A stretch of 28,131 nucleotides of DNA, from NCBI GenBank assembly GCA_964485255.1, contig CAZAIS010000001.1, forward strand, positions 1-28,131, written 5' to 3'. Position numbers and translations under genes: made by a program. Under the pieces are notes generated by a model that searched no databases, was not told the origin of the DNA, and saw only the letters and a list, made by a program, of their open reading frames with translations. This stretch comes from an uncultured Acidimicrobiales bacterium. GTDB taxonomy: Bacteria; Actinomycetota; Geothermincolia; Fen-727; Anoxymicrobiaceae. Positions within the stretch are counted from its first letter, which is position 1. Every line of letters starts with the position of its first letter. Of this stretch, positions 4,291-28,131 are shown in pieces.

Positions 4291-4475
4291 CTCTTCGTAA
4301 CCCCTGGATCAAGGCGAACAGTCACTCAATCATATTGAATCACTACGCAATAGGACATCCCACCCGCCGAAACCGCATTCGCGAGCGGGATCGAAAACCG
4401 GCCGGGGGGCCTGGAGCAGGCTCCGGGCACCCGTCAGCCCGGCCGGGCCGCCAGCGAAGCCCGCTTCCGCTGTCA

Positions 4476-4481
4476 TATAAT
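4476..4481 (+). promoter_or_regulatory. -10 box of a probable leaderless transcript
   Basis: Perfect TATAAT ending 7 nt before ATG 4488, with no SD in the 6-nt gap (tgccgc). Confidence 0.6.
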
Positions 4482-4487
4482 TGCCGC

Positions 4488-6773: not shown

Positions 6774-6791
6774 CCCAAAGCGCCCGCCTTC

Positions 6792-9029: not shown

Positions 9030-9046
9030 GCATCGAAGGATTCACC

Positions 9047-10581: not shown

Positions 10582-10787
10582 CTCCAGCCTCGCTCTCGCG
10601 CGGCTCCGTCGAAAGGCGAACCGCTCCCTACCGGCACCGTAGCACCGGACGTCGCCTGACCTGTTGAAAACCGCGGTCATTAAACTGTTAGCCGCGAGTC
10701 GCGCTCGAACCTTGCGCGGCCCTGCCCCCGCGGCGCAACCGCGACCCGCGGCCGCGGGTGAACGGCGTGGACGGCTTCCTGTATCAT

Positions 10788-12383: not shown

Positions 12384-12434
12384 GGAAACCGGCCACGCGA
12401 TCGGGGATGGAAGGAGCGCGCCGGGAGCGGCGCG

Positions 12435-13148: not shown

Positions 13149-13178
13149 GGCAAGTCCTCCATTCCGCCGCGCCGCACT

Positions 13179-14228
13179 TCACTGACTCCAGTTATCCCGC
13201 TCCTGCTCGCGCGGCCTGATTCGGGCTTCCACCACTCCCCAGGCGTACACAACCAGCGTAACAAGGCACGCCGGAACGTGCAGAATCCATGCTATGTCCG
13301 GCCTCCTTGTGTATCCTCTGACCGCCTGCGCGACGAGAGGGACCACCAGGAGGCAGTACGCGATGAACTTCAGGATGCCGCGGGTGCGCCCGCGGTTCGG
13401 GGCGCTCTCCCTCATTCCGCGCGCGCTGTAGTAGCTGAAATCCCGCACCCTCCTGAGTTGCTTTCGCCCGAAGACGCGCAAGCCCGTCCCGTAGAGGTGC
13501 ACTATCCCGGTCTTCACCTTCGCGAAGCGGTCGTAACCCAACGCCACCAGCCCGCTGACTACATCGACGTCGAAGAGATACTCCCCTACGTCCAGAAGCT
13601 CGAGGAGTCCCCGCCGGACCATGAAACCGTTCGCGCCCATCGTTGGAATACGGCCTGTCTGGAGCTTGACCTCCAGGTAATCGCCCCGGTCGCGCTCGTC
13701 CACCTTCAGCCCCGTCCACTTCCCCGAAAGCGCGCTCACGCGGTCGTAGCTGCCCATGAAGTAGACCAGAGGGTCGTTCATTCCCAGCAACGCGCAATAC
13801 CTCGTCAGCATGGGATCGTCCCGCCGGTACGTATACTCCAGCGGCTCCGACGCGGCGATCCCGGGGTCCGCGAAAGGCGCCGTCATGCGTCTCATCCACG
13901 ATCCGTCGGGCAGGATGTTGTCGCTGTCGATCAGGGCTACGACGTCCCGGGTGGCGGCTTTCAGCCCTGCCGCTTTTCCCGCCTCGCCGGTCTTCTTTTC
14001 GTTTTCGACGACCAGGCAGCCGTACTCTTCGGCGATCCGCAACGTCCCGTCCGTCGAGCCCCCATCCGCCACTATTATCTCGAGCGGCCCGTCGAATTCC
14101 TGCAGCCTGATGCTCTCCAGGCACGAGGATAGAACGCTCTGCGCGTTGAGAGTCGGGATTATTACGCTCACCCCGACGGGTTCAACGCCCCGGGACGAGT
14201 CTCGCTTTTTCTCCACCTCACCCGTCAT
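13179..14228 (-). CDS. GT2 family glycosyltransferase with C-terminal membrane helices
   Basis: SVIIPTLN, IIVADGGSTDGT, IDSD (DxD), GANGF, two hydrophobic C-terminal segments. Confidence 0.9.
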   Translation of the reverse strand: MTGEVEKKRDSSRGVEPVGVSVIIPTLNAQSVLSSCLESIRLQEFDGPLEIIVADGGSTDGTLRIAEEYGCLVVENEKKTGEAGKAAGLKAATRDVVALIDSDNILPDGSWMRRMTAPFADPGIAASEPLEYTYRRDDPMLTRYCALLGMNDPLVYFMGSYDRVSALSGKWTGLKVDERDRGDYLEVKLQTGRIPTMGANGFMVRRGLLELLDVGEYLFDVDVVSGLVALGYDRFAKVKTGIVHLYGTGLRVFGRKQLRRVRDFSYYSARGMRESAPNRGRTRGILKFIAYCLLVVPLVAQAVRGYTRRPDIAWILHVPACLVTLVVYAWGVVEARIRPREQERDNWSQ

Positions 14229-14230
14229 TG

Positions 14231-16552
14231 CTACCGCTCCACAATCTCGACGTTGTCTATCTGCAGCAACGCGTTTCTCATCGCGAATATCGCGAGCTCG
14301 TTGTTGCTCAACCGTGTAGCGGGGCCGCTCTTGGTGATATTCAGCTCCAGCCCGCCGGACGGCACCCTGAGGTTGCCGATCTCCACCATGGCCTCCTGGC
14401 CTTGATCCATGAGGCCGGTTGCCAGCTCTTCCCCGCTTTTCGCGCTTATCGTGACCTTGCCCCTGGAGTATGGATTCCTCAACGGTACCTTCAGTGTAAT
14501 CACTCGGTCTTCACCCGTGTAATTCTCAAGCCTGATCGTTCCCAGGCCGTCGAGCACGCGCATGGTTTCTCCTTCCCTGGCCATTATCGGCACGGATATG
14601 TTCCCAAGGTACAGGGGCAGGATGTCGGCCGGTCTTCCCTTGACCTCGTAGATGCGCGCCTGTCCGAACGGACCGTCCTCGTTGAACCTGGCGACTTCCC
14701 GGAAGCCCTCCGGAAGCCGTGACGGGTCCAGCGGCCAGCCCGCGTTCTCCTCGATCTCTCCGACGAAAACCACCGCGTGGGTCATGCCTAGCCTCTTGAG
14801 GTACGAGGGCGTCGCCGGGTCGTAAGGGTTGTAGACTGTTCGACGGGCAGCCTCACCATCGGAGTTCGCGGTCGCTCCGTTGAGCATCGGCTTCTTGAAG
14901 ACCCGCTGGTAGAACAAGAGCTGGCTGGCTAAAAACGGACCGTTCTCGTGGATCGGGTAGAACACGAGCACGGGGTCCCCCTTCATCTTATCTACCGCGG
15001 AGAAGACGCCAGGCGTATCGCTGAAGTCGAAATTCTTGAAAGGCGGAACGGGCACCATCTCTACCAGCAGAAGCGCGACGAAAAGGGTGACAACGATTAT
15101 CGAGCGGGGGCGGAAGCGGTGCGCGAGGAGGACCAGGCCGGCAGCCGCGATCACGATCAAGCAGAGCCCTACGACGACCGACCACCTGTTGTACCAGCGA
15201 AACCAGGGCGCGATCAGCGTCATGATCCTGGACGGGAGCGGGATTTCGGCCGACCCGATGGAAAAGCCCGGCTTGAGCGAAAATACGAAAGCCGAAAGGC
15301 CCGCCGCCGCGAAACCCCACATGGCCGGCGCGGCGCCGCCGCCTCCATGAGGGGCCCGGTGTTCATCCCGCGCCTCGCGAAGCTTTCTTTTCCTGCTCCG
15401 CCATTTAGAGAGAGTCAGTACCAGGCAGATGGTGGCGAGCAGGAAAACCGTCCAACCGATGTATACCGAATCGACGTAAAGAGCCTGGGTCACCTTGTGA
15501 AGCCTCCTCTGCAGCGGAGCCAGCAGAGAGTTCTTGAAGTTCGGCCTCAGGTATTGTGCCGGAGACGCGGACGCGCCGTACAAGTATTCGTCTATGCGAA
15601 GTTCGGCCGGCGTGGGGCTGGTAGGCCACCTGCCGGGAGGATTGTAGTCACTCGCGTACAGGACGAAGAACGGCAGTACCGCGATCACGAAGACGAGCAG
15701 GGCGCAAAGAGACAGCAGGGCGGTCCTCCTGTTCACCGAAAGGTGATCCCGGATCGAACGGCGCAGGCCGCCCCCCGAAGCGTCCCTCACCACGAGGTAG
15801 ACCCATCGACCGATCAGGAAGGCCGGTGTGAACACTCCCATGAAAAGCCCGAAATGCAGTGAGGTGTTGGCCACCAGTATCGCGCTCAGGGAGACGCCTA
15901 ACGCCGTCTTCCATCCGGGCTTCTCGATGAAAAGGATCAGGCAGAGGATGTAGAGAGGCATCCACTGCGTTGCGGCCAGCCCCGAGCCTATAAACATAGA
16001 ATAGTTGACGTGGAACGCGGACAGCATGAACGCTATTCCCGCGAAAAACGCTACCCGCCGGTCGTGCAGCAGATGTCGCACCAGGTAATACATCGTAACG
16101 CCCGAGAGCGCGTATCCCAGGAGCACGTCTATGTTCCATGCAACCACCTCGTTGGTGAACAGGAGGAGGAACCTCCACTCCAGGTACCCGAGAGGTTGCA
16201 CCGGAAACCCGAGCGAGCTTCCGAAGGGAGCGCCGATCAGTGGACAGAACGTCACGCTTCCGCCGTATGCGCCGGCATTCTTGTACCACCAGTTCAACCA
16301 TATCGTCCCGAGGTTGTCTCCCGGGACACCGTATATGGAACTGCTGAAGCGCGTTATGAGAGGCCAGGTCAGATAGAGTGTGAACAAAACGTAAAAAAGG
16401 ATTATCCAGAACTCGGGCCTTACGCGGGATATGCTCGCCGCCATACGACCGGCCACACCGGAGAAAGGCCTCCGGGCGCCAGCGACGGAGGCAGCCTCAG
16501 CGGCGCCGTCCGCGGCCGTGTCTTTTGCTCCAGTGTCATTCATCGCCAGCAA
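14231..16552 (-). CDS. Large multi-pass membrane protein, predicted GT-C / YfhO-like glycosyltransferase (paralog B)
   Basis: PGDNLGTIWLNWW loop, many TM helices, collinear with 6792-9029. Start TTG 16552 or ATG 16543. Confidence 0.65.
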   Translation of the reverse strand: MLAMNDTGAKDTAADGAAEAASVAGARRPFSGVAGRMAASISRVRPEFWIILFYVLFTLYLTWPLITRFSSSIYGVPGDNLGTIWLNWWYKNAGAYGGSVTFCPLIGAPFGSSLGFPVQPLGYLEWRFLLLFTNEVVAWNIDVLLGYALSGVTMYYLVRHLLHDRRVAFFAGIAFMLSAFHVNYSMFIGSGLAATQWMPLYILCLILFIEKPGWKTALGVSLSAILVANTSLHFGLFMGVFTPAFLIGRWVYLVVRDASGGGLRRSIRDHLSVNRRTALLSLCALLVFVIAVLPFFVLYASDYNPPGRWPTSPTPAELRIDEYLYGASASPAQYLRPNFKNSLLAPLQRRLHKVTQALYVDSVYIGWTVFLLATICLVLTLSKWRSRKRKLREARDEHRAPHGGGGAAPAMWGFAAAGLSAFVFSLKPGFSIGSAEIPLPSRIMTLIAPWFRWYNRWSVVVGLCLIVIAAAGLVLLAHRFRPRSIIVVTLFVALLLVEMVPVPPFKNFDFSDTPGVFSAVDKMKGDPVLVFYPIHENGPFLASQLLFYQRVFKKPMLNGATANSDGEAARRTVYNPYDPATPSYLKRLGMTHAVVFVGEIEENAGWPLDPSRLPEGFREVARFNEDGPFGQARIYEVKGRPADILPLYLGNISVPIMAREGETMRVLDGLGTIRLENYTGEDRVITLKVPLRNPYSRGKVTISAKSGEELATGLMDQGQEAMVEIGNLRVPSGGLELNITKSGPATRLSNNELAIFAMRNALLQIDNVEIVER

Positions 16553-16696: not shown

Positions 16697-17077
16697 CTAG
16701 ATCGAATGACCGCTGACACTGCCCGGGCAACTGACCGTCGGCGGGTTCGAACCTCCTGCACCCACCAACGTATAAGTATTACCCGAGTTGGTCGCTGACG
16801 AGGCCGGGCATGTGGGGAGCTTCTTGATGTACGTCGCTACAAAAACAGACTGTACCGACGCGGCACCAGGATACGCGCCATCCTCCCTATCGGCGATGTA
16901 CGTGTTGATCGCCCCGTCAATGGTCCTCAGGTTCGCCTGGCAGGTTCTCCTCTGAGCATTCGATCTCGCCGACAGGAATACCGGTACGGCGATAGCAACA
17001 AGGATTGCGATGATTAGAATGACTATCATCAGCTCGATCAGAGTGAAACCTTCATGCCTTCCAAGCATGCGCCTCAT
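16697..17077 (-). CDS. pilA: Type IVa pilin, probable major pilin
   Basis: Class III signal MRRMLGRHEG|FTLIELMIVILIIAILVAIAVP with E5. GAGGGGGTG RBS supports ATG 17077. Has its own promoter-like region and terminator. Confidence 0.92.
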   Translation of the reverse strand: MRRMLGRHEGFTLIELMIVILIIAILVAIAVPVFLSARSNAQRRTCQANLRTIDGAINTYIADREDGAYPGAASVQSVFVATYIKKLPTCPASSATNSGNTYTLVGAGGSNPPTVSCPGSVSGHSI

Positions 17078-17117
17078 GTGATTCACCCCCTCTCGGCAAC
17101 TCTCATCTCTATTTATA

Positions 17118-17147
17118 TGCATCGGTCTTAGCGACTGTCTCCTTTAG
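17118..17147 (-). promoter_or_regulatory. Possible sigma28 (FliA/WhiG/SigD)-type promoter of pilA
   Basis: CTAAA (17147-17143), 17 nt, CCGAT (17125-17121). An overlapping TATAAA offers an alternative sigma70 -10. Confidence 0.4.
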
Positions 17148-17166: not shown

Positions 17167-18384
17167 TCACTTGATCATGGTGATAACCCGGAATATCGGC
17201 AGGTAGAGCGCGATGACAATCATGCCTACGGATACACCCAGGAACATCATGAGCAGCGGCTCCAGGGTGGACGTCAGGCTGTCGACCCCCGCGTTCACCT
17301 CCGAGTCGTAGAACTCGCTGACCTTACCGAGCATCACGTCAAGGGCGCCGGTCTCCTCGCCGATCGCTATCATCTGGGTGATCATCGGGGGGAATACCTC
17401 AGCGTCCTGCAGCGGCCTGGCTATCGTTTCACCCTCCTTGACGCTCGCCCTTACCCTGTCGAGCTCACGCGTCACAACCATGTTGCCTGTAGTCTCCCCG
17501 GTGATCTCCAGCGCGCCGAGGATCGGCACCCCGGAAGAAATCAAGGTGCCCAGGCTTCTCGAGAACTTCGACATCGCGGTCTTGTGAAACAGGTTTCCCA
17601 CGTAAGGCATCTTCAACTTCATCTTGTCGATGGCGTACCGGCCCTGGTCCGTTGCCTTTACCCGCCTCCATACAATCACCAGGCCTACGATGACGGCTAT
17701 TATAACCAGCCCGCCCCATCCGCCGATGAAGTGGCTGATGCCGACCAGCACCTTGGTGAAGGTGGGGAGTTCCCCTCCCATGGACTTGAACATGCTCGCG
17801 AACTTGGGAACGATGAACACGATCATGGCCGCCAGCAGGACAAGTGAGAGGCCGAGAATCGCGATCGGGTAAGTCATGGCGGACTTGACCTTCCGCCTGA
17901 TCTCGAACTCGCGCTCGAGCTGGTCGGCCACTCGCAGGAGGACATCGTCGAGCATACCGCCGAGCTCACCGGCCCTCACCATGCTCACGTAGAGGTTACC
18001 GAACGCCTCCGGGTGCTTGGATAACGCCTCGGAGAGGGAGCGGCCCGCCTCCACCTCGCGCTGGCAGTCAGTGATAATGCTCGCGAGGGAAGCGGATTCC
18101 GTCTGTTGCGCAAGGATGCTCAGGCACTTTATAAGCGGCAGGCCCGCGTTGATCATGGTGGCGAACTGGCGCGTGAAGATATTGATGTCTTCTTGCTTGA
18201 CCTTGGTACCGAATATGTGGATTTCTTTTTTACCGATGGCCTGCTTTACCTCGTCGACGCTGACGACGTAATAGCCCATCTGGCGCAGCTTCCCCGCGAG
18301 CACGTCGGCGTTATCCGCCTCGAGAGAACCCGTTATTTCGCGCCCCGTCTTGTCCCTGACCGTGTAATTAAACTGGGTAGCCAA
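17167..18384 (-). CDS. pilC: Type IV pilus inner-membrane platform protein PilC (T2SSF family)
   Basis: FTRQFATMINAGLP, YVSMVRAGELGGML, SAMTYP, IAIGEETGALD. GGAGGT spacing favours the second TTG (18384, MATQFNY). Confidence 0.95.
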   Translation of the reverse strand: MATQFNYTVRDKTGREITGSLEADNADVLAGKLRQMGYYVVSVDEVKQAIGKKEIHIFGTKVKQEDINIFTRQFATMINAGLPLIKCLSILAQQTESASLASIITDCQREVEAGRSLSEALSKHPEAFGNLYVSMVRAGELGGMLDDVLLRVADQLEREFEIRRKVKSAMTYPIAILGLSLVLLAAMIVFIVPKFASMFKSMGGELPTFTKVLVGISHFIGGWGGLVIIAVIVGLVIVWRRVKATDQGRYAIDKMKLKMPYVGNLFHKTAMSKFSRSLGTLISSGVPILGALEITGETTGNMVVTRELDRVRASVKEGETIARPLQDAEVFPPMITQMIAIGEETGALDVMLGKVSEFYDSEVNAGVDSLTSTLEPLLMMFLGVSVGMIVIALYLPIFRVITMIK

Positions 18385-18447
18385 TGTCAAACCTCCCCGA
18401 CGCGACCCGCCGGTCGCCTCGAACGGCCCTTTTATCCACTGTTCCCA

Positions 18448-18514: not shown

Positions 18515-19591
18515 CTACCTGCCCACGAGTCGCCTGAAGTCGTCCTTGTTGTGAGAGCGCGCCAGCCCGGTTTCGTAGGTGATCTGGCCCGCCCTGTAAA
18601 GCGCCGCGAGGGAGGCATCCATGGTCTGCATCCTGAGCTGCCCGCCCGACTGCATCGCCGAATAGATCTGGTGCACTCGCGCGTCGCGTATCATGTTGCG
18701 GATAGCCGAGGTCGCGATCATCACCTCCACCGCCGGGACCCTCGAGCGCCTGTCCTTGGTGGGCACGAGCTGCTGGGTTACGATAGCCTGCAACGTCGAG
18801 GCCAACTGGAGGCGCACCTGCGCCTGCTGGAACGTCGGGAAGACGTCGATGATCCTGTCGATGCTCTGCGGGGCGTCCTGCGTGTGGAGGGTGGCGAATA
18901 CCAGGTGGCCGGTTTCCGCGGCGGTCAGTGCCGTCTGGATGGTCTCGAGGTCTCTCATCTCGCCGACCAGTATGATGTCGGGGTCCTGGCGCAACGCGTA
19001 CTTGAGGGCGTTCGCAAAAGAGTGTGTGTCCGAGCCCACCTCGCGCTGGTTGACGATGCACTTCTTGTGCAGGTGCAGGAACTCGATCGGGTCCTCGATG
19101 GTGATGATATGCTCCTCGCGGCTGGAGTTGATGAGGTCCATGATGGCCGCCAGGGTGGTTGATTTGCCCTGCCCGGTGGGACCGGTCACCAATATGAAAC
19201 CCCTGGGCAGGCGCGCGAACTCCTTCACCACCATCGGGAGCATCAATTCCTCGACCGTCTTGATCCGGTAGGGAATTATCCGGAAGGCCGCGCCGACGCT
19301 GTTCCTCTGGAAGTAGGCGTTCACTCGGAAGCGGGCGCTGCCGGGCACCGAGTACGACAGGTCGAACTCGAGGTTAGTCTCCAGGGTCTCGCGCTGGCGG
19401 GCCGTCAGGATGCTGTAGACCATTTCGCGCGTGTCGTTGCTGGTGAGCCTGGGTAGGTCCATCCGCTGAAGCACGCCGTTGATGCGGAGCACCGGGGGTA
19501 CTCCAACCGTAATGTGCAGGTCAGACGCCCCCCTCTTGATGACTTCCTCCAGCATCTCATTTATATCGAGCCTCAAACTCTGCTGTGCCAC
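18515..19591 (-). CDS. pilT: Type IV pilus retraction ATPase PilT
   Basis: ASDLHITVG, GPTGQGKSTT, ITIEDPIE, ALRQDPDIILVGEMRD, AETGHLVFATLH, AIRNMIR motif. Confidence 0.96.
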   Translation of the reverse strand: MAQQSLRLDINEMLEEVIKRGASDLHITVGVPPVLRINGVLQRMDLPRLTSNDTREMVYSILTARQRETLETNLEFDLSYSVPGSARFRVNAYFQRNSVGAAFRIIPYRIKTVEELMLPMVVKEFARLPRGFILVTGPTGQGKSTTLAAIMDLINSSREEHIITIEDPIEFLHLHKKCIVNQREVGSDTHSFANALKYALRQDPDIILVGEMRDLETIQTALTAAETGHLVFATLHTQDAPQSIDRIIDVFPTFQQAQVRLQLASTLQAIVTQQLVPTKDRRSRVPAVEVMIATSAIRNMIRDARVHQIYSAMQSGGQLRMQTMDASLAALYRAGQITYETGLARSHNKDDFRRLVGR

Positions 19592-19618: not shown

Positions 19619-21310
19619 CTACATCACGACCCTGAGCACTTCCTCGATAGAGGTTATGCCTCGCTTTACCTTGAGCCAACCGTCATCGCGCAGGCTGGCC
19701 ATGCCCCTTTCGCGGGCGAGTCTGCCTATCTCCCTCGCGGTGGCCATGTTTACCACCGCTTTCTCAACCTCCTCGTCCACCAGCAACACCTCATAGAGCC
19801 CTATCCTGCCCCTGAACCCCGTCTGGTTGCAGAAGGGGCAGCCGTTCGAGCTGGCCTTGTACACGGTCACGGTCTCGCCGTCCTCTACCGGGAAACCGAT
19901 CTTCTCGAGGTACTCCGCCGGGTACGTCGTTTCCTCTCGGCAACGGGTGCAGAGCCGCCTGGCCAATCTCTGGCTCACCACGCTGTCCACCGCCGACGCT
20001 ATCAGGAACGGCTCGACGCCCATCTCGGTCATTCGGGTCATCGCCGATGGCGCGTCGTTGGTGTGGAGAGTACAGAGAACGAGGTGCCCGGTGAGGGCGG
20101 ACTCGATGGCCATCTTCGCGGATTCCGAGTCGCGGATCTCGCCGATCATCACGATATCGGGGTCGCACCTGAGTATGGACCTCAGGCTCGCCGCGAACGT
20201 AAGGCCGACCTTGGTATTCACCTGTACCTGGTTTGTGCCCGCGAGCTGATATTCGACCGGGTCCTCCACGGTGATGACGTTCACCTCGCGCTTGTTCAAC
20301 TCGGTCAGGGCGGCGTAGAGGGTGGTCGTCTTCCCCGAGCCTGTCGGGCCCGTAACGATGCACGTCCCGTACGGCTTCTTGAAGGATACCTCGAACTGCT
20401 TCAAAGGCTCAGGCGAAATGCCGAGTTCCGTCAGGCTCAAAAGGATACTGCTGCTGTCGAGGATTCTGAGGACTATCTTCTCGCCGTGCACGGTCGGCAC
20501 TGAAGCGACGCGGAGATCGATATGCTTGCCCGAGGCTTCCATGGCGAATCGCCCGTCCTGCGGCACCCGCCGCTCGGCGATGTTCATGTTGCCTAGGATC
20601 TTGAGCCTGGATACGATCCCCGGATGTATGCGTCTCGGTGAGCGGCGCGTCTCGCGCAGCACGCCGTCTATCCTGTAACGGATGCGAACGTCCTTCTCCC
20701 CCGGCTCTATGTGGATATCGCTGGCCCCCTCGTGGACGGCCTCTCCGATGATGAGGTTCACGTACTTGACAATAGGAGCGTCTTCCCCCGCCTCCTTGAG
20801 CACCTGCTCGTCCTCGACCTCCTCTTCGTCCTCCAGGGAGGGCAGATCCTCCAGGGCGTCGTCCATGTCCGCGGACACGTGCAGGTAACGCCCGATCGCC
20901 CCCAGGATATCGTCCTTGGTCGTCACGACCGGGATTATCTCCATCCCCGTCATGATGCGAAGGTCGTCGAGGGCGAAAACGTTGGTGGGGTCGGCCATGG
21001 CGCAGACGAGCTTGCTGTCCTGGTAGTCGATCGGGATCACCGCGTACCTCTTGGCGAGGTTCGAGTCTATCAGCGTCGCCGCGCCCGGATCGATCGCGTA
21101 GTTTGAGAGATCGACGTAACTGATGCCGATCTGCTCGGCCAGCACGGACGTAAGCTGACCTTCCGTCAACACGCCCCTGTCGATCAACACCCTGCCGAGC
21201 GATTTGCCCGTCGTAGAATGCTCCTGGAGCGCTTCGTCCAACTGCTCCTCATTGATTAGATTGTTCTGGAGCAAGAGCCGCCCCAGGCGGTCCTGCCTGG
21301 GTTTCTCCAT
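19619..21310 (-). CDS. pilB: Type IV pilus extension ATPase PilB with N-terminal MshEN-like domain
   Basis: ASDIHIEP, GPTGSGKTTT, TVEDPVEY, LRCDPDIVMIGEIRD, TLHTNDA, CTRC/CPFC Zn motif, GFRGR. Confidence 0.95.
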   Translation of the reverse strand: MEKPRQDRLGRLLLQNNLINEEQLDEALQEHSTTGKSLGRVLIDRGVLTEGQLTSVLAEQIGISYVDLSNYAIDPGAATLIDSNLAKRYAVIPIDYQDSKLVCAMADPTNVFALDDLRIMTGMEIIPVVTTKDDILGAIGRYLHVSADMDDALEDLPSLEDEEEVEDEQVLKEAGEDAPIVKYVNLIIGEAVHEGASDIHIEPGEKDVRIRYRIDGVLRETRRSPRRIHPGIVSRLKILGNMNIAERRVPQDGRFAMEASGKHIDLRVASVPTVHGEKIVLRILDSSSILLSLTELGISPEPLKQFEVSFKKPYGTCIVTGPTGSGKTTTLYAALTELNKREVNVITVEDPVEYQLAGTNQVQVNTKVGLTFAASLRSILRCDPDIVMIGEIRDSESAKMAIESALTGHLVLCTLHTNDAPSAMTRMTEMGVEPFLIASAVDSVVSQRLARRLCTRCREETTYPAEYLEKIGFPVEDGETVTVYKASSNGCPFCNQTGFRGRIGLYEVLLVDEEVEKAVVNMATAREIGRLARERGMASLRDDGWLKVKRGITSIEEVLRVVM

Positions 21311-21375: not shown

Positions 21376-22239
21376 TCAAATATAAGCTTCCTCAAGCGCC
21401 TTGAGAAGGGCAACCCTCATAACCTCCACCGGGGCCTCGAGCCCAGTCCATATCTCGAACGCCGCGGCGGCCTGGTAGAGCAGCATGCCTTTGCCGTCCA
21501 TCACAAGGGCCCCGCGGGCCTCGGCCTCCTGGAGCAGCGGGGGCTGATAGAGCGAGTAATTGAGATCGCAGACGAGGTGGTTCTTGTTCAGAAGTGACAC
21601 CGGGACCCTCAGCGAGCCGTTGAAGGTAGTCAGGGGAGTCGCGTTGATGATGAGGTCTGATTCAGCGACCACAATATCGTAGTTGTCGTCGGGAGACAGC
21701 CAGTTCACGTCGATGTCTGGGGCGCTCCGCCGGATTATCTCCGCCAGTTGCTCGCTGCGGTCGGGCGACCTGTTTACTATGACTATCGAGGCGCAGCCCG
21801 CCAGGGCCAGCGAAACGGTGACGCTCCTCGAAGCGCCGCCCGCGCCCAGCACCAGCACCCGTTTGCCCTTTACGTCGTACCCAAGGTCCCTCGTGAGGGC
21901 CGTATAGAAGCCCCGTCCGTCCGTGTTGTAGCCGATGAGCTTGCCCTTGTCAACGAGTATGGTATTCACCGCGCCTACCGATTCAGCGAACATGGCGACT
22001 TCGTCGAGCAGCGGCAGCACGTCCGTCTTGAATGGCATGGTCACGTTGACCCCGGCGAACCTCAAGGCCTTGATGCCCGCCACCGCGGTGCCGAGGCGGC
22101 CTTCCTCCACGGGCAGGGGCACGTAACACCAGTTCAGCCCGAGGTAGTCGAATGCCGCGTTGTGAACGGCGGGAGAAAGCGAACGATCTATCGGGCTTCC
22201 AATGATTCCCACCAGCCGCGTTGTTCCGTCCAGTTGCAT
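21376..22239 (-). CDS. aroE: Shikimate dehydrogenase
   Basis: SLSPAVHN, GVNVTMPFK, GAVNT, GYNTDG, LGAGGAS, NRS, INATP, GKGMLLYQA. Confidence 0.93.
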   Translation of the reverse strand: MQLDGTTRLVGIIGSPIDRSLSPAVHNAAFDYLGLNWCYVPLPVEEGRLGTAVAGIKALRFAGVNVTMPFKTDVLPLLDEVAMFAESVGAVNTILVDKGKLIGYNTDGRGFYTALTRDLGYDVKGKRVLVLGAGGASRSVTVSLALAGCASIVIVNRSPDRSEQLAEIIRRSAPDIDVNWLSPDDNYDIVVAESDLIINATPLTTFNGSLRVPVSLLNKNHLVCDLNYSLYQPPLLQEAEARGALVMDGKGMLLYQAAAAFEIWTGLEAPVEVMRVALLKALEEAYI

Positions 22240-22296: not shown

Positions 22297-22839
22297 TCAG
22301 CCGGCCCGCTCGAGGGCCTCCGCCCTCTCCATGACCAGCTCGAGCAATGCCAGCAGGACATCTTTGACGTCGGTCGGTTTCCTCGCGTCACACCTTACAA
22401 CCGCCGCGTTCCCGAGCTTCGCGATCCTATCCCGGGCGTCCTCGGCGCTCAGGCAGTCCTTCCTGTCCGCCCTGGTGAGGCCGATAACGCAGGGCCTGTC
22501 GGACATGCCCCGGAACGCCTCCAATATGCCCGCCGCCTCGTAGAACGAATCAGGCTTGCTGCCGTCCGCCAGGACTACGTAGCCCAGCATGCCCTCGGAG
22601 AGTATCTCCCACATGAAGTCGAACCGCTCCTGCCCGGGAGTCCCGTATAGATGGAGAACATAACCGTCGGGAAAGGTGATACGCCCGAAGTCCATGGCGA
22701 CAGTGGTATCGCACTTCTTTCCGCCCTTCCTCGTCTTCCTTTCGGTGGCGACCACTTCGATCTCGCTGATAGCGCTGATGAACGTGGTCTTTCCGGAGTT
22801 GAAAGGCCCGGTTACCACTATCTTGAAGACTCCGTCCAA
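22297..22839 (-). CDS. MglA/CvnD-type small Ras-like GTPase
   Basis: KIVVTGPFNSGKTTF P-loop, TTVAMDFG switch I, LYGTPGQERFDFMW switch II. TTG start with GGAGGG RBS. Confidence 0.9.
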   Translation of the reverse strand: MDGVFKIVVTGPFNSGKTTFISAISEIEVVATERKTRKGGKKCDTTVAMDFGRITFPDGYVLHLYGTPGQERFDFMWEILSEGMLGYVVLADGSKPDSFYEAAGILEAFRGMSDRPCVIGLTRADRKDCLSAEDARDRIAKLGNAAVVRCDARKPTDVKDVLLALLELVMERAEALERAG

Positions 22840-22856
22840 ACAATCCCTCCCCGCCG

Positions 22857-25208
22857 TTACATCTTCTTCAGGTCATCAATAATCTTCTTAACCGACCCCT
22901 TGTCCACCTCTTTTGACCTCCTGGCGCGGCCTTTCTTGTCTTTGGCGTCCTTCGCCCTGGTCGCCTCCCGGTCTTTCTCTGTTATATGCCGCCTTTTCTC
23001 CTTCACGCCTCCCGCGAGCTCCAGCAGTTCCTGCTCGAGCTCAAACGTCTCGAGGTCGACCAGGCTGGTCCCGGCGCCGCGCTTGCCGCGTACCTGCAAA
23101 CCGAAATCCTCTTCATCCTCGCTCGAGGCCTCGGCCCCGGTCTCGGACTCCTCCTCGGCGAGGACTGTTTCTTCTTCGACGCCGGGCCGGGAGGATATTG
23201 CGAAATCGTCCTCGAAGACCGGCTCCCGCCGGGGCGCGGCGGATTCCTCCGGCTCGCGCGGCTTTTCCTCCTTCGCGGTCTTGCCACCCGTAATCTCGCG
23301 AAGCGTATCCATCTCGTCGAAGTACGCGTCGGCGGCCTGCTTGCCGGCGGCCGGCGTCATCTCCGGATCCAGGAAGGCCGCGGCGGGCTTCTCCTGCCGC
23401 GCCGGAGCGTCCTCCAGAGCCACCTGCCCGGGCTCCTCCGAGACCGGTTCGGCTTCGAAGGTGACAGTCTCGGCCTCGTCCGGAGCCTCGACGGTGAAGG
23501 CGGCGGGCCCGTCATCCAGGACAACCGCCCCGGCGTCGGCGCCGATCGACTCCTCCTCCACCTGCGCTTCAGCGGTCTCGCCGAACACGACCTCTTCGCC
23601 TGCCTCTTCCTCCAGCTCGATCCCGGCAGTCAGCTCATCTTCCTCGACCCGCAACTCGGCCGGCTCCCGGGTCAGCTCCTCGATCGTGTCGATCTCTTCC
23701 ATTTCCTCGAACCGGGCAGGCTCTCCGGCTGACCGGGCAGCTTCCTCCTCGTCGGCATCCTCCGTTTCCCGAGCCGCCTCCACGGGCTCTTCGCCCTCGA
23801 AGGCGGCCGGCTGCCTGCGTTCGTCGATGGGGATTACCTCGGCCTCCTCGACGTCGGTTGCGGAAATCTCCAGTTCCTCCGATTCCTCTATCGCAAGCGG
23901 CGGGACGCCTTCATCCCTCGCGACGGCCGCATCCTCGAGCTGAAAGACCTCCGCCTGCTCTCCACCGAAGGCCGTCTCCCCCGCATCCCGGGAAGCCACG
24001 GGCTCGGGCTCAGCCGCCTGTTCGACGAGCTCGGGCTCCGCTCGAGCGGCCTCCGCGACAGGAGGCTCGGCCTCGATCTCGGACCCTGCATCAATCGCGA
24101 TATCCTCGGCGGTTACAACCTCCTCGGTCTCGCCGAGCTCGACAACGGGAGTCCCCTCTTCGAGGTCCACATCCTGGAGCGCGTCAGGTCCCGACTTGAA
24201 CTGGATGACACGGCCCGTGGAACCCTGAGCCCCGGCGGGCTCGTCCTCGACGTGCGCCTCTTGAGGCTCCACGATTGGATACGTCGGCTGATCGAAGGCG
24301 AGCAACTCCTCCCTGCTCAGATCGCGGGATTTAGGGGTGACCTGCAGGAGTTGCTCTATCTCTTCTTCCGTGGGTATGCGCCCCTGGTCCCCGGAATCGT
24401 CCAACAGGGGTATCTCCCCGGCGTCCGGCACCTGATCGAGCCCGGCTTCAGACCCCTGAGGCTCCATCTCCTCCAGGCCCGAGAGCGCGATCTCTCTGGG
24501 GCTTCCGGCATCCTCGTCGACAGCCGGTTCCCCGGCGTACGCCTGCGCTTCGACTTCCTGCTCCATCGTAACGTAGTTGGCGGCGGCCGGTGGAACATCG
24601 TCCAATCCCACCGTGGCCGCTTCCTCCGAAACGGAGGCCTCCGGGTCCCCCTCATAGCCGCCTTCAGCCTCGGCGGCCTCCGGCTCCAGATCCAACTGTA
24701 CACTCTCCGCCGTCGCTTCGTCCCTCGCGTCGGCTTCTTCCGCGACCATGGGGGAGAGTTCCTCCAGGATGAATGAATCCTCCGCCGCCACTTCCTCTTC
24801 TGTCCCCGGCTCCGCCTCGAGCCGGCCGGTTTCACTGGCGACCGCTTCGGCTGCGGCCGGTTCCTCCCCGGACTCTTGAATCTCCCGCTCGCCGGGCTCC
24901 GCCTCCTCCTCGTCCGGATGATCGGCAGCGCCCTTGTGTGACAGCCTCCTGCCGCCCCCGCGCAGTCTCGTCAGGTGGCCGGCCCACTCGAGAGGAATGT
25001 CATCGGGTTCCTCGTACCCGGCAGCCTCATCGAGCGTCTCTTCGGCCGCCTCGTCAGGCGACGCTTCGGATTCATGCTCTTGAACGAACTCGACCTTCTT
25101 TTTGTCCTCGGTCTCCTTGAAGGCCAGCAGGCGGTCGTTGTCGGACGCTTCCTTGAGCGCCAGGGACTTGTAATAGTCAACCAGGCTCTGTCCAGGCGCG
25201 GGTTCCTC
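22857..25208 (-). CDS. Acidic low-complexity region in frame with the upstream DUF4388 gene, probably its C-terminal part beyond an internal TAG
   Basis: No stop from 25208 to 22860 and same frame as 25209-26474. The first canonical start is only at 24791 with a poor RBS. E/A/D/P-rich, ending in an amphipathic helix (SVKKIIDDLKKM). Confidence 0.7.
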   Translation of the reverse strand, partial: EEPAPGQSLVDYYKSLALKEASDNDRLLAFKETEDKKKVEFVQEHESEASPDEAAEETLDEAAGYEEPDDIPLEWAGHLTRLRGGGRRLSHKGAADHPDEEEAEPGEREIQESGEEPAAAEAVASETGRLEAEPGTEEEVAAEDSFILEELSPMVAEEADARDEATAESVQLDLEPEAAEAEGGYEGDPEASVSEEAATVGLDDVPPAAANYVTMEQEVEAQAYAGEPAVDEDAGSPREIALSGLEEMEPQGSEAGLDQVPDAGEIPLLDDSGDQGRIPTEEEIEQLLQVTPKSRDLSREELLAFDQPTYPIVEPQEAHVEDEPAGAQGSTGRVIQFKSGPDALQDVDLEEGTPVVELGETEEVVTAEDIAIDAGSEIEAEPPVAEAARAEPELVEQAAEPEPVASRDAGETAFGGEQAEVFQLEDAAVARDEGVPPLAIEESEELEISATDVEEAEVIPIDERRQPAAFEGEEPVEAARETEDADEEEAARSAGEPARFEEMEEIDTIEELTREPAELRVEEDELTAGIELEEEAGEEVVFGETAEAQVEEESIGADAGAVVLDDGPAAFTVEAPDEAETVTFEAEPVSEEPGQVALEDAPARQEKPAAAFLDPEMTPAAGKQAADAYFDEMDTLREITGGKTAKEEKPREPEESAAPRREPVFEDDFAISSRPGVEEETVLAEEESETGAEASSEDEEDFGLQVRGKRGAGTSLVDLETFELEQELLELAGGVKEKRRHITEKDREATRAKDAKDKKGRARRSKEVDKGSVKKIIDDLKKM

Positions 25209-26474
25209 CTACTTGGCCCGCACCTCCGGCTCGAGGTCCTGGTCATGAATAATGAGACTTTCCTCTTCCCTTACCTCCGGCTCCGGCTCGTCCGCCGGCT
25301 CGCGCTTCTCCTCCGCTTCGGTAGACGCCTCTTCATCCAGTCGCTCCTTCCGCGCGGCGGACGTGTGAATCGACTTCCTGGTCTTGCGCCTGGACTTCTT
25401 GCGCTTGCGGCCGCCGTCGTCGAGGTCAACCTCGTCGCCGGTGACCTCCTCCACCAATACCTCTTCATCCGCTTCGCCGAGGGTTATCTCTTCCACGGGC
25501 TTCTTCCTGCCGGCCGTGGACTTGCGCCTGGACTTCGGGGCCTTGGCCTCCTCCACCTCCGGTTCGGGAGCCGCGGCGGCGTCCCGCCCGACGGGAGCTT
25601 CCGCCCCCGCGGGCTCGGCCTCCGCGGGCTCCGCCACCGTGGCATCCACTGGCTCCAGGGGAGCTTCGCTCGCGCCCGGGGCGCCGGCGGGCTCCTCTTC
25701 CTCCATCTTCTCGATCTCTTCCTCCAGAACGCCGGGAACGGTGTCCGCGGCCCGGGCCTCCTCCTCGGTCAGGACCACGAGACCGGCGGTCACAAGCCCG
25801 TACAGCGCTTTGCATGTCACCAGCGCGCTCTGTCCGCTCTTCTCTATGATGTCGCGAACGCCGCTGCTTCCGTCCACGTGGTAGAGGACCAGCCATTCCT
25901 CGCTGGTAAGGTTGATGTCCGTGGCGTCCTTTCCGGGGATCTTTGTCATCTTGAAGACCGAGTCGAGCGACGGCACCTTCTTCTCGATCTGGTACCACTC
26001 GTCTAGCCTCCGGCTGCCTTCCATGATGAGGTCCTCGGTGGTCATCGAGAGGCCAATGTCCTCCTCGGGAAAGATCTGGTTGGGGTCGAAATCGAACTCC
26101 CCCTCGGTCCAGCGCAACAGGTGGAAGACGGCATCCCTTATCTGTTCCTCGACGAAGACCTCGAGTGATTCTCGGCTCAGGTAACCCATCTCGACGAGGA
26201 TGTTGCCGAGCCTCTGTCCTTTCCGGGTCGTCTTCTGCAGATCGAGCGCCTCGTCGATCTGCTCCTCTGAAACCATGCCTGATTCCGTGAGCCTGCGGCC
26301 GAGTGGAGGCCTCTTCCAGTTATGTGTCGCAAAGAAGACGTTGCCGTTTCTGAAGCAGACGTAGCCCTTCGCGTCTCCATTGGTGATGTTGAGAGTTCCG
26401 TTCTTCTTCCCGAAATGGATCAACTGAAACAAATCTGGAAGGCTGAAATCCCGGAGGCTTCCTTTAAGAGGCAT
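25209..26474 (-). CDS. DUF4388 (PATAN) domain protein with embedded MshEN-like motif and acidic tail
   Basis: [49 protein letters not shown] are typical of DUF4388. Ends at TAG 25211-25209. Confidence 0.85.
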
Positions 26475-26489
26475 TGCGTCCCTGCCAGT

Positions 26490-26888
26490 CTATTCGTACT
26501 CCACCTGGAGGTGTGATTCTATGATGGCGGCAATCGCCTTGGCCGCGTTTCGAATGTCGTACAGGACGAGGCCGAGCTTGCTTCCCCGCCTTACTATAGC
26601 GTTCAGAACCGCGTCCTCCCCCGCGGAGAGCAGAAACACGTAACCGTCGGTGCCCTCGACGAAGACCTGCGCCAGATCGCCGCGTCCCAGCTCCTGGGCC
26701 GTCCTTTCCCCCAGGCTCAGAAGGGCCGCCGACATCGCCCCCAGGCGGTCCTCCTCGTAACCGCCCGGAAGGACGGAGGCCATGACGAATCCGTCCATGC
26801 TCACGACAGCGGCCGCGTCAATCTCCTGTGTTTTCTCCAATAAGCCCCTAAGGGCATCCTGGAGCTCGTTCTGCTGGGCACCGTCCAA
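26490..26888 (-). CDS. Roadblock/LC7 domain protein (MglB-like)
   Basis: AAVVSMDGFVMAS, DRLGAMSAALLSLGERTAQELGRG, VFVEGTDGYV, KLGLV. GGGAGGT RBS supports TTG 26888. Confidence 0.9.
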   Translation of the reverse strand: MDGAQQNELQDALRGLLEKTQEIDAAAVVSMDGFVMASVLPGGYEEDRLGAMSAALLSLGERTAQELGRGDLAQVFVEGTDGYVFLLSAGEDAVLNAIVRRGSKLGLVLYDIRNAAKAIAAIIESHLQVEYE

Positions 26889-27008
26889 GCGTTTTACCTC
26901 CCTGCCCGGTTTTTCGCAGGCGAAGGTGCAAGAGGGCTTCGAAAACACGACGCGGCCATACCACGCGTGAAAAAAGCCCGCCCTCCGTGATTGCGTCTCT
27001 AGGAGTTA

Positions 27009-27017
27009 ATTCTATCA
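27009..27017 (-). promoter_or_regulatory. Extended -10 promoter (TGnTAGAAT) upstream of the second Roadblock gene
   Basis: Minus strand TGaTAGAAT in a short AT-rich patch of the intergenic region. Confidence 0.5.
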
Positions 27018-27120
27018 TAGCGCGGGCTCCGTCTCGCGCCGTTGCTCCCGGGGTCGTAAGGCTCTCGGGCCCAACATCGGCCGCGACGCGGCGCGTAGAG
27101 CCTTCCACCGGTATGCCGTC

Positions 27121-27153
27121 CGCTCACGCCCGCCCTGAAGCCCCGCGTGAGCG
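27121..27153. other. GC-rich stem-loop downstream of the first Roadblock gene
   Basis: 9-bp perfect inverted repeat cgctcacgc / gcgtgagcg with no U-tract. Confidence 0.45.
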
Positions 27154-27179
27154 ACCGTCAAGCGCCCGGAGGTCGTCTG

Positions 27180-27551
27180 CTAGATAACCTCGGCCAGCTT
27201 CTGCGCGCAACGGTTTACCTCCAGGAGCGTCATTCCCATCTTCGCCTGGTGGTCCACCGTGCAGGCCAGAAGAGCATCTTCGTTGACCTTGACGACCACC
27301 AGGTCGCCCGAGTCTCCCCTGAGATACACCTGGTCGATGGTACCCCTGGAGAGCTCCCGCGCCACCCTCTCGCCCGACGCTATGAGCGCCGAAGCCGTCG
27401 CGCTGAGCAACTCCTCCTCCATGCCTTCAGGCATGTCGGATGCCAGGGGCATCGCGTCCGAACTGATGAGCACCACGGCCTCGACGCCGTCGCCCTCAGA
27501 CCTCAACTCCTTGAGCATATCCATCATCTGCTGTTCGCGAACTCCCGCCAC
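27180..27551 (-). CDS. Second, more divergent Roadblock/LC7 domain protein
   Basis: AVVLISSDAMPLAS, ATASALIASGERVARELSRG, VYLRGDSG, KMGM. Start probably GTG 27551 or ATG 27528. Confidence 0.85.
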   Translation of the reverse strand: MAGVREQQMMDMLKELRSEGDGVEAVVLISSDAMPLASDMPEGMEEELLSATASALIASGERVARELSRGTIDQVYLRGDSGDLVVVKVNEDALLACTVDHQAKMGMTLLEVNRCAQKLAEVI

Positions 27552-27596
27552 AATCCCCCCTGACTCGCCGGGAACGCCGGTTCTCCTTTTCTCGTG

Positions 27597-27604
27597 ATAT
27601 CGGA
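27597..27604 (-). promoter_or_regulatory. Possible sigma28-type -10 element upstream of the first Roadblock gene
   Basis: TCCGATAT (7/8 match to GCCGATAT); the -35 is weak. Confidence 0.3.
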
Positions 27605-27634
27605 CTGACAACCCGGGCGTACTAACAGGATCGC

Positions 27635-27901
27635 CTATATTATGCGGCTAGTCGGCCTCGTTGGATAGAGGCCTTCCAGGACGCGGGGCGCCGGAGAGGA
27701 GTCCGAGATGACGATGGCGGCCGCCCGGCAGGACTCTACGCAGGTGAAGCATCCCATGCACCCCTCGACGTTCACCACAAAGACGGCGCCGCCTTCGGCG
27801 GCAAGAACAGGGTCGGCCACTCCGTCGCCGCTCTGGGGACAGAGTAGCACGCAATCGCCGCAGTCAACGCACCGCTCGCTCAATATCTTGATGTCGGGCA
27901 T
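27635..27901 (-). CDS. 2[4Fe-4S] dicluster ferredoxin
   Basis: CVDCGDCVLLCP and CMGCFTCVESCR. AGGAGG RBS supports ATG 27901. Confidence 0.9.
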   Translation of the reverse strand: MPDIKILSERCVDCGDCVLLCPQSGDGVADPVLAAEGGAVFVVNVEGCMGCFTCVESCRAAAIVISDSSPAPRVLEGLYPTRPTSRII

Positions 27902-27912
27902 CTCGATTCCTC

Positions 27913-28131
27913 CTAGTGCGCTCCACATGGAACGCAAGGGTTGAACGACCTGACCGCCAGTTGAAGCCTCGCCGCCGTGGCGTCATCGACCTCGATGCCG
28001 CGCACTATCCTCGACGCTACTTCGGTGAGGTGCGCGTTCATGAGCCTGTAGCAGAACTGGAGCGGGCTCATCACGCGGTATTCCACCATCCTGCACGTAT
28101 CGTCTATCGACCGCGCGTGGGCGAGTATCCC
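27913..28131 (-). CDS. C-terminal fragment of a [NiFe]-hydrogenase large-subunit-like protein
   Basis: Not in ORF track. Open frame from the window end: GILAHARSIDD...GIEVDDATAARLQLAVRSFNPCVPCGAH*, resembling the group 3 (HoxH/MvhA) C-terminus with an L2-like RxFxPCxxCxxH. Confidence 0.78.
   Translation of the reverse strand, partial: GILAHARSIDDTCRMVEYRVMSPLQFCYRLMNAHLTEVASRIVRGIEVDDATAARLQLAVRSFNPCVPCGAH

Follow-up and report, generated by a model that had tools for sequence, protein, structure and literature searches.

A small G-protein gene module, made up of two Roadblock genes, a PATAN-domain scaffold gene and one gene encoding a small Ras-like GTPase, lies next to the type IV pilus motor genes pilB, pilT and pilC in a contig of an uncultured Acidimicrobiales bacterium (family Anoxymicrobiaceae; contig CAZAIS010000001.1 of assembly GCA_964485255.1). 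The whole stretch analysed, 28,131 nucleotides (nt), is referred to here as the window. All 39 related loci with adequate flanks (39 of 39) show the same arrangement again, far beyond chance. The identities of the genes and domains, the conservation of their motifs and the operon-like linkage to pilB, pilT and pilC are direct observations. The reading that we favour, with some reserve, is that these genes encode a G-protein module of MglA-family Group 5, which in this actinobacterial clade is devoted to the type IV pilus motor.

Conserved linkage of the module to pilus motor genes

Relatives were identified by scanning one genome per species with the N-terminal PATAN domain, which gave 277 relatives, and the best 80 loci were fetched. 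Loci were used since a word-indexed protein search with the same domain returned 9 matches and missed the long orthologs. The first alignment for the genome scan was too diverse for pattern design and was rebuilt with 6 sequences. The window proteins were then mapped onto all open reading frames (ORFs) of the 80 loci, and those with flanks of 1.5 kb or more upstream and 6 kb or more downstream, 39 in number, were counted. These loci come from Geothermincolia, Coriobacteriia and other Actinomycetota, with PATAN identities down to 44%; the closest are metagenome-assembled genomes (MAGs) of Anoxymicrobiaceae and Actinomycetota.

A Roadblock gene and pilB lay no more than 6 kb from the PATAN gene in all 39 loci, the GTPase gene and aroE in 38, pilC in 34 and pilT in 32. 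The GTPase orthologs are 45–78% identical to the GTPase of the window. Four layouts could be distinguished: (a) the window type, fer4-Robl-Robl-PATAN-GTPase-aroE-pilBTC; (b) the Geothermincola/Solincola type, with three Roadblock genes; (c) the Coriobacteriia type, aroE-pilB'-Robl-PATAN-GTPase-(membrane protein)-pilB-(pilT)-pilC, in which the module is situated between two pilB paralogs; and (d) the Actinomycetes type, alaS-ruvX-yceG-aroE-Robl-PATAN(411–451 residues)-GTPase-(ORF of 49–60 residues)-pilB-pilT. The linkage is thus kept in four layouts, two of which put the module directly against pilB. An earlier prediction made from the window alone (the original prediction) had read the module beside the pil genes as a switch for pilus polarity or extension/retraction, and would have been undermined by a lack of conservation of this linkage; the linkage held across all four layouts and over the whole range of PATAN identity.

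The position upstream of the motor genes with aroE in between, as originally described, is correct for the window, but aroE is incidental to it. In the Coriobacteriia-type and Actinomycetes-type layouts aroE is found upstream of the module, and because it switches sides while the module stays beside pilB, it is a bystander belonging to a recurring alaS-ruvX-yceG-aroE gene run.

The Coriobacteriia-type loci (L046–L087) have some features of their own. Two full-length pilB paralogs with MshEN domains flank the module (e.g. L056:7450-9168 and 13411-15090), and several of the loci have no pilT downstream. Locus L056 belongs to 'Coriobacteriaceae bacterium EMTCatB1'. Directly after the GTPase gene there is a gene without Pfam match (L056:12513-13343; also in L066, L080, L082, L086 and L051), whose product combines a membrane helix at the N-terminus with a linker rich in Pro and Glu and a C-terminal block that is conserved (YRLVAPVELHFTxGxxRVGVRPGTRTHDEFQRLA). 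The protein may be a fifth module member that anchors the module to the membrane. The ORF of 49–60 residues in the Actinomycetes-type layout occupies the same post-GTPase position.

Genes of the module and of the pilus motor

The genes concerned are all encoded on the minus strand of the window, in the order (from 27611 to 16697) Robl1, Robl2, PATAN scaffold, GTPase, aroE, pilB, pilT, pilC and prepilin gene:

27180..27611, minus strand: Robl1, Roadblock/LC7 gene 1, the distal paralog (PF03259, E 5e-14; maximal ORF 143 residues)
26490..26948, minus strand: Robl2, Roadblock/LC7 gene 2, adjoining the PATAN gene (PF03259, E 7e-18)
25209..26474, minus strand: PATAN scaffold gene, 5' part, 421 residues, ending at an in-frame TAG (PF14332, E 2e-37, residues 4–160)
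26142..26306, minus strand: MshEN-like four-helix insertion in the PATAN domain, residues 57–111, putative cyclic di-GMP (c-di-GMP) site (NF053729, 57 bits against a cut-off of 38)
25770..25922, minus strand: winged-helix-like domain after the PATAN core, residues ~185–235 (weak MarR_2 and HTH_27 matches)
25209..25211, minus strand: in-frame TAG, codon 422 of the scaffold frame (single stop in 1205 codons)
22857..25208, minus strand: continuation of the scaffold frame, poly-acidic low-complexity tail (same frame as the PATAN part; no Pfam match)
22297..22839, minus strand: small Ras-like GTPase, 180 residues, MglA-family Group 5 / CvnD-like type (PF03029, E 1e-14; Ras, E 1e-6)
21376..22239, minus strand: aroE, shikimate dehydrogenase, between module and pilB (NF001319, 263.6 bits against a cut-off of 252)
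19619..21310, minus strand: pilB, extension ATPase with its own MshEN domain (T2SSE, E 6e-136; MshEN, E 6e-20)
18515..19591, minus strand: pilT, retraction ATPase (TIGR01420, 491.8 bits against a cut-off of 319)
17167..18390, minus strand: pilC, platform protein (T2SSF, E 1e-61; PilC models 400–418 bits, under the equivalog cut-offs)
16697..17122, minus strand: prepilin-type pilin gene (N_methyl, E 9e-8; TIGR02532, 31.3 bits against a cut-off of 16.3)

Family scans, together with the list of ORFs, confirm the four co-oriented module genes, separated from the motor genes by aroE, at essentially the coordinates originally given. The original domain calls (two Roadblock proteins, a PATAN/MshEN protein and a small GTPase) are likewise correct according to Pfam and NCBIfam scans. 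The gene count needs one amendment, as the scaffold gene is cut by a premature TAG and the ORF finder therefore reports five ORFs. For Robl1 the likely start is a presumed GTG at 27551, by position codon 21 of the ORF, giving a protein of 123 residues, the same length as its ortholog in locus L001. PilB, PilT, PilC and a prepilin together constitute a type IVa pilus motor set, and pilD and pilM are also present in the window. PilB scores 650 bits with TIGR02538, under the cut-off of 675.65, and 64 bits (cut-off 38) with NF053729 over residues 8–60.

Intergenic gaps are 15–124 nt, except for 231 nt between the two Roadblock ORFs. From Robl2 through pilT the gaps are 15–65 nt, and the Robl2 stop lies 15 nt before the PATAN start. 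A consensus scan for promoters and terminators gave weak hits, and the minus-strand terminator-like ones inside the module are also weak. The tight gaps and the weakness of the terminator-like matches are signs of a possible operon.

The GTPase fits MglA Group 5 by motifs and gene order

The GTPase has the motifs GPFNSGKT (G1), DTTVAMDFG (G2), GTPGQ (G3) and TRAD (G4, in the context LTRADRKD). Its AlphaFold model (pLDDT, the predicted local distance difference test score, 83.5) retrieves MglA structures at Foldseek ranks 1–6, ahead of Rab and Arf, and the best sequence match in the PDB is Thermus MglA (3t12, E 2e-4). Its closest homologs are named Candidatus Geothermincolia and Anoxymicrobium japonicum. 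In the classification of Wuichet & Søgaard-Andersen (2015; PMC4316618), true MglA (Group 1) has an arginine finger beside the G2 threonine and a TVPGQ motif, while Groups 2–5 have Thr in place of the arginine finger together with GTPGQ, and the conservon GTPases of Group 2 have NxFD in G4. The G2 region of the window protein reads D-T-T-V-A-M-D-F, with TT kept in 61 orthologs, at the position where Thermus MglA has ERTLFFDF; GTPGQ is invariant in the alignments. True MglA orthology was rejected on these G2 and G3 motifs, which place the protein among Groups 2–5. The G4 of the window protein does not conform to the conservon NxFD, and across orthologs G4 varies between TRAD, ATRxxD and NKV..D. 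The gene order Robl-Robl-PATAN-GTPase, recurring in related loci, is of the kind listed for Group 5 in Table S2 of the same study ('MglB>PATAN>MglA' in Acidothermus, Aquificae and Roseiflexus, including the Acel_1323 trio of Acidothermus cellulolyticus; 'PATAN>MglA' in Chloroflexi). On motifs and gene order, the GTPase thus fits MglA Group 5.

The Roadblock pair

The two Roadblock proteins share 32% identity. In the PDB, Robl2 matches 7f8m (E 4e-20) and CvnB5 (3leq, E 9e-14), and MglB only with E 0.17 or worse; the best solved relatives of Robl1 are 7f8m and 9jue, with CvnB5 (3leq) at E 1e-3 and MglB at E 0.16 or worse. By sequence, both are much nearer to conservon-type Roadblock structures than to MglB. 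The term 'Mgl-like' originally used for the module is therefore apt in a broad sense, but not in detail: the GTPase has neither arginine finger nor TVPGQ, and the Roadblocks are nearer to CvnB. The accompanying remark that the GTPase motifs resemble those of CvnD is well founded (PF03029, TT in G2, GTPGQ in G3).

An Asp-Gly pair has been noted in the Roadblock partners of Groups 2–5 (PMC4316618). Robl2, which has the Roadblock fold, carries this pair as MDG, which 80% or more of 75 orthologs retain; in Robl1 the pair reads Asp-Ala, as it does in 32 orthologs at that position. The copy number of Roadblock genes is one, two or three depending on the lineage, and the Robl2 type is retained in every layout. 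Because the Robl2 type is always present and keeps Asp-Gly, while Robl1 has Asp-Ala, the sequences suggest a hetero-dimer in which Robl2 is the predicted catalytic partner. In known systems, MglB has both GTPase-activating protein (GAP) and guanine nucleotide exchange factor (GEF) properties on MglA (PMC13408092), and for MfpB the CvnB homolog MfpD is the GAP and the CvnC-type MfpC the GEF (PMC13343842).

Domain architecture of the PATAN scaffold

The N-terminal domain of the scaffold scores 128 bits with PF14332 (PATAN/DUF4388; gathering cut-off 25), 157 residues aligning to 121 model positions. In the AlphaFold model of residues 1–240 (mean pLDDT 83.6) a β/α PATAN core is interrupted by an alpha-helical insertion, with helices 58–120 placed between strands, and followed by a small helical domain. 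A solved PATAN core structure was not found by sequence or by fold, the Foldseek matches of the whole model being weak (E 0.017 or higher). Matches to the GATOR1/SEA complex in Foldseek are apparently confined to short, possibly winged-helix, segments, and the full-length alignments have a root-mean-square deviation (rmsd) above 15 Å. A relationship of PATAN to longin or Roadblock domains is not claimed.

The insertion resembles the MshEN domain of pilus ATPases. Its profile matches Thermus PilF (6f8l, E 1e-15), Geobacter PilB and Vibrio cholerae MshE (5htl, E 6e-8); Foldseek superimposes it on MshE with bound c-di-GMP (5htl_B) over 57 columns with an rmsd of 1.3 Å; and residues 57–111 exceed the cut-off of NF053729 ('cyclic di-GMP-binding domain, MshE-related') as listed above. 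The MshEN motif RLGxxLLxxGLLxxxxLxxxLxxQ occurs as two tandem copies of 24 residues with a spacer of 5 (Wang et al., PMC5013675). Motif 2 of the insertion is canonical (RLGxxLVxxGYLxxxxLxxxVxxQ), and its positions RLG..L..G..L..Q are kept in 72–82 of 82 orthologs (R88 in 79, G90 in 81, L93 and L104 in 82, Q111 in 80). Motif 1 starts with P57 in place of the first Arg (54 of 82 orthologs), a residue that only the relaxed search pattern of Wang et al. (PMC5013675) allows at this point, and has Q80 in 61 of 82; the spacer is 7 residues long. With NF053729, layouts (a), (b) and (c) score 57, 53.5 and 43.4 bits against the cut-off of 38, and layout (d) fails. Among the proteins sampled, three pil-linked ones from Geothermincolia and Coriobacteriia pass this motif model, and L007 and four outgroup proteins fail. 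Judged from motif and model, c-di-GMP binding by the insertion is plausible, though unproven because half-site 1 starts with Pro and the spacer has 7 residues. The original suggestion of c-di-GMP gating thus finds backing in a score above the cut-off and a nearly invariant half-site 2, but not in half-site 1 or the spacer.

Positions 49–74 of the Pfam model PF14332 itself weakly match residues 6–31 of PilB (encoded at 19619-21310 of the window; E 0.0047). Because of this weak match to the PilB N-terminus, the sequences suggest that PATAN domains in general may have an alpha-helical insertion akin to one hairpin of MshEN, in which case c-di-GMP might also be bound by other PATAN proteins. Literature searches that touched on the MshEN-like character of the PATAN insertion found only a remark by Han et al. 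on GspE_N annotation (see below).

The PATAN core is followed by a winged-helix-like region (helices 191–229 in the model), to which MarR-family structures match weakly. Matches to DUF742 (CvnC) occur in 2 of 17 orthologs (best E 1e-3), among generic winged helix-turn-helix families; this similarity is too faint to claim a CvnC origin of the domain. The rest of the scaffold frame encodes a tail of 964 residues with 29% Asp and Glu and a net charge of -188.

A premature stop codon in the scaffold gene

The scaffold frame (22857-26474) has 1205 codons and a single stop, the TAG at 25209-25211, because of which the ORF finder splits it into ORFs of 421 residues (25209-26474) and 644 residues (22857-24791) in the same frame. 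In the relatives looked up, one gene of 924–1437 residues is found at the scaffold position. Contigs of about 97% identity from three other metagenomes (runs X1, X3 and X4) have C, not A, at plus-strand position 25211, giving GAG (Glu); in run X2, with contigs of 100% identity, there is an assembly gap exactly at the TAG position. The organism is present in samples from landfill, sludge or wastewater. Recoding of the stop was rejected because TAG terminates several other genes of the window (pilB, pilT, the pilin gene and both Roadblock genes). Downstream of the stop, two islands of the tail are conserved, at residues ~425–510 (24945-25202) and in the last ~70 residues (22860-23069). Since the remaining frame is intact and holds no second lesion, the TAG is a nonsense change that is private and very recent, or else an error of assembly or consensus. 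A product of 421 residues would keep every folded domain and be similar to the short scaffolds (411–451 residues) of another lineage. In another MAG (L015:908-5911) the PATAN ORF stops ~1.9 kb before the GTPase gene; it thus seems that, in assemblies other than this one too, interruptions or assembly errors readily affect the long, repetitive acidic tail.

A PATAN-GTPase pair outside the pilus context

Starting from a GTPase labelled Chloroflexota (P0118), 52–53% identical to that of the window, a scan of metagenomes yielded 80 loci, which we call Chloroflexi-like from their gene order, GTPase length and source label. Of these, 49 are 6 kb or longer; in every one of the 49 the GTPase gene comes directly after a short PATAN gene (~280 residues), a Roadblock gene is detectable in 8, and the neighbours are ordinary metabolic and housekeeping genes. 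The conserved core is thus the PATAN-GTPase pair; the pil linkage is a feature of the actinobacterial clade, and the canonical MshEN-type insert is a feature of only a part of that clade. The originally proposed linkage accordingly applies to this clade and does not extend to the PATAN-GTPase pairs of its sister clade. About 3 kb downstream of one such pair, a response regulator with a weak GGDEF match is encoded (L148:11335-12231).

Proposed function and alternative explanations

We propose that the module most likely acts as a GTPase switch that docks on PilB/PilC and may respond to c-di-GMP. [quoted passage not shown] The Roadblock pair could serve as a hetero-dimeric GAP, perhaps also as an exchange factor, that resets the switch, comparable to MglB for MglA and MfpD for MfpB. 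A second input, probably c-di-GMP, would enter through the MshEN-like bundle, and the poly-acidic tail of about 950 residues might be a disordered spacer or a localisation element. We infer the protein-protein contacts, the GAP activity, the ligand binding and the output, which could be either polarity or an on/off decision.

Several observations weigh against this proposal. The linkage may reflect co-inheritance within one conserved neighbourhood (alaS-ruvX-yceG-aroE) instead of function. The PATAN-GTPase pair is not intrinsically a pilus device, because the outgroup keeps it without pil genes: pilB or pilC was found within 8 kb in none of the 49 outgroup loci, and a single locus has a distant PilT-like ORF. 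Guanine specificity of the GTPase is not assured because G4 is degenerate across orthologs. Half-site 1 of the insertion has Pro where MshE has a guanine-stacking Arg, and its spacer is 7 residues, not 5; moreover, the pil-linked L007 type fails the c-di-GMP motif model, as does the outgroup. In this very contig the scaffold is truncated by the TAG, and no characterised MglA Group 5 system with PATAN and MglB neighbours was found in the literature.

One alternative keeps the pilus motor as target and shifts the emphasis to the scaffold, which would mainly be a c-di-GMP receptor that brakes or activates PilB; the GTPase and Roadblocks would then be assembly or turnover factors, and the output would be pilus number, not polarity. 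The motif score above the cut-off, the nearly invariant half-site 2 and the pattern of passes and failures among the sampled proteins speak for it, and control of the motor by c-di-GMP is plausible in view of the MshEN motif of PilB itself. Still, half-site 1 has no Arg and the spacer is longer, the pil-linked L007 type keeps GTPase and Roadblock without the motif, and it is the GTPase that is the most conserved and constant partner (38 of 39 loci, 45–78% identity), so that we consider this explanation unlikely, though deserving of attention. Another target is envisaged if the module is a general actinobacterial G-protein signalling unit, a relative of the conservons without kinase, acting for example on envelope growth, division or, via the winged helix, transcription, and adjacent to pil genes only through the shared alaS-ruvX-mltG-aroE neighbourhood. 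In agreement with this, the Roadblocks are nearest to CvnB (3leq, E 9e-14 for Robl2), the GTPase belongs to PF03029 like CvnD, the winged-helix domain has faint DUF742 matches, the outgroup pairs have housekeeping genes and no pil genes as neighbours, and the whole block is embedded in a run of housekeeping genes. The linkage to pil genes nevertheless survives four rearranged layouts, two of them abutting pilB and one placing the module between two pilB paralogs; a CvnA kinase is absent and G4 departs from the NxFD of conservons; PATAN domains have been tied experimentally to PilB and PilC; and an MshEN-type insertion is common to the scaffold and PilB. On this evidence a non-pilus role appears distinctly improbable.

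More speculatively, and with rather little credence on our part, the module could represent the G-protein system ancestral to the conservons of actinobacteria, which would have lost the PATAN scaffold while its winged helix survived as CvnC. Here the module would be a spatial organiser: the poly-anionic tail of about 1000 residues (net charge about -188) would exclude the scaffold from the nucleoid or drive a polar condensate, and the GTPase state and c-di-GMP would determine whether, or at which of the poles, the PilC platform is engaged by PilB instead of PilT. Should this hold, it would be the first G-protein polarity switch physically wired to the pilus motor in a Gram-positive lineage. 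The slimmest chance is given to decay of the module in this strain, with the scaffold gene as a pseudogene. This would account for the single in-frame TAG where three near-identical populations have GAG, and it accords with the location of the conserved tail islands downstream of the stop and with a first restart codon 139 codons further on, at 24791. It sits poorly with a frame that is intact across 783 further codons, with neighbouring genes that are all intact, with a natural counterpart of the 421-residue product in the short scaffolds, and with a TAG base that is unverified, as the run of the identical strain has a contig break there.

Genomic surroundings of the module

Between the pilin gene and pilD/pilM, the window contains an island of ~14 kb on the same strand (2752-16552). 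It encodes membrane glycosyltransferases of the PMT_2 type and of a TMEM260-like+TPR type, three S-adenosylmethionine (SAM) methyltransferases, a B12-binding radical SAM enzyme, a family 2 glycosyltransferase (GT2) enzyme and, at 6792-9029 and 14231-16552, two large membrane proteins that match no Pfam family. The island looks like a pilin glycosylation or modification island, and the TMEM260-like+TPR gene is found beside pilins in relatives as well. Because the glycosyltransferase and methyltransferase genes, pilD and pilM continue on the same strand, the window is one large pilus locus.

On the other side of the module, a 4Fe-4S ferredoxin gene (27635-27937) ends 23 nt before the Robl1 ORF. 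In relatives, genes for the small and large subunits of a NiFe-hydrogenase precede the ferredoxin gene (L001:2778-5318; L003:3137-5640; L006:3675-6129). The ferredoxin and hydrogenase genes form an insert between yceG (mltG) and the module, which locus L005 does not have.

Significance

The trio of Roadblock, PATAN and GTPase proteins and its component families were already known; what is new is the linkage of the trio to the pilus motor. An operon-like coupling of the trio to pilB-pilT-pilC in Actinomycetota was not found in the literature searched, nor was anything relevant on type IV pili of Geothermincolia. No mention of a giant acidic tail on such scaffolds turned up, although no search was aimed at the tail. 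The fixed position beside the pilus motor is the first strong clue to the function of the trio and provides a concrete, testable target for the switch, so that a widespread but uncharacterised trio of G-protein genes can now be tested as a regulator of pili. Three themes that have been studied separately, i.e. Ras-like polarity GTPases, docking of PATAN domains on PilB and c-di-GMP sensing by MshEN domains, are joined in one set of proteins. The module could clarify how pili are steered where bacteria lack a Frz/Rom system or response regulators of the PatA type, and it hints at how the conservon G-protein systems relate to MglAB.

Comparison with known systems

MglA/MglB of Myxococcus xanthus and Thermus thermophilus likewise consist of a Ras-like GTPase and Roadblock-fold regulators, and the predicted fold of the GTPase described here is nearest to MglA, which controls type IV pili via effectors. 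In contrast to Group 1, the present GTPase has TT, not RT, and GTPGQ, not TVPGQ, the Roadblocks match MglB only with E 0.16–0.17 or worse, the module abuts the pil genes, and no equivalents of RomR/RomX or SgmX were seen.

The conservon/Mfp systems (CvnA-D, Group 2) occur in the same phylum and share a PF03029 GTPase with GTPGQ and CvnB-type Roadblock partners (to which Robl2 and Robl1 match with E 9e-14 and E 1e-3); the GAP role of CvnB/MfpD and the GEF role of CvnC/MfpC provide a working analogy. The present module differs in having no separate DUF742 gene, TRAD or NKV..D instead of NxFD in G4, and a PATAN scaffold. No kinase domain corresponding to CvnA was found in the scanned ORFs of the window or in the called genes of relatives, and conservon membership was rejected on the missing CvnA and on G4.

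With the cyanobacterial PatA-type regulators (PixE, PixG and LsiR; PATAN-REC) the scaffold has the PATAN domain PF14332 in common. In Synechocystis, PilB1 is bound by the PATAN domain of PixE, while the N-terminus of PilC is the binding site for PatA-type regulators, which thereby set the direction of pilus activity; the PATAN domain alone reverses phototactic orientation (bioRxiv 10.1101/2021.06.11.447907). In the same study, Han et al. noted PATAN proteins annotated with GspE_N, as well as MglAB homologs encoded close by, and wrote that a conserved part of PATAN domains in type IV pilus control 'remains to be seen'. In the present scaffold there is no receiver domain; the architecture is PATAN, MshEN-like insert, winged helix and acidic tail, and the input would be the GTPase, and perhaps c-di-GMP, instead of phosphorylation. 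The two tandem motifs and the four-helix unit are shared with the MshEN receptors (V. cholerae MshE, T. thermophilus PilF and PilB N-termini), but here the unit is inserted in a PATAN domain and not located at the N-terminus of an ATPase, with Pro in motif 1 and a spacer of 7.

A close counterpart is the Group 5 of Table S2 cited above, which has the same MglB>PATAN>MglA order and GTPases of ~175–195 residues with TT in G2 and GTPGQ in G3, and whose Chloroflexi PATAN>MglA pair matches our outgroup. An association of PATAN with MglB was noted by Makarova et al. in 2006, according to later citing papers. The trio, originally called uncharacterised, is so in the sense that no function has been assigned to it, but it was already on record as an MglA Group 5 neighbourhood. 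The catalogue records no pil genes and assigns no function, whereas here the module is fixed beside pilB-pilT-pilC, with one to three Roadblock genes depending on the lineage (two in the window), a full two-hairpin MshEN-like insert and a scaffold with an acidic tail of 700–1200 residues.

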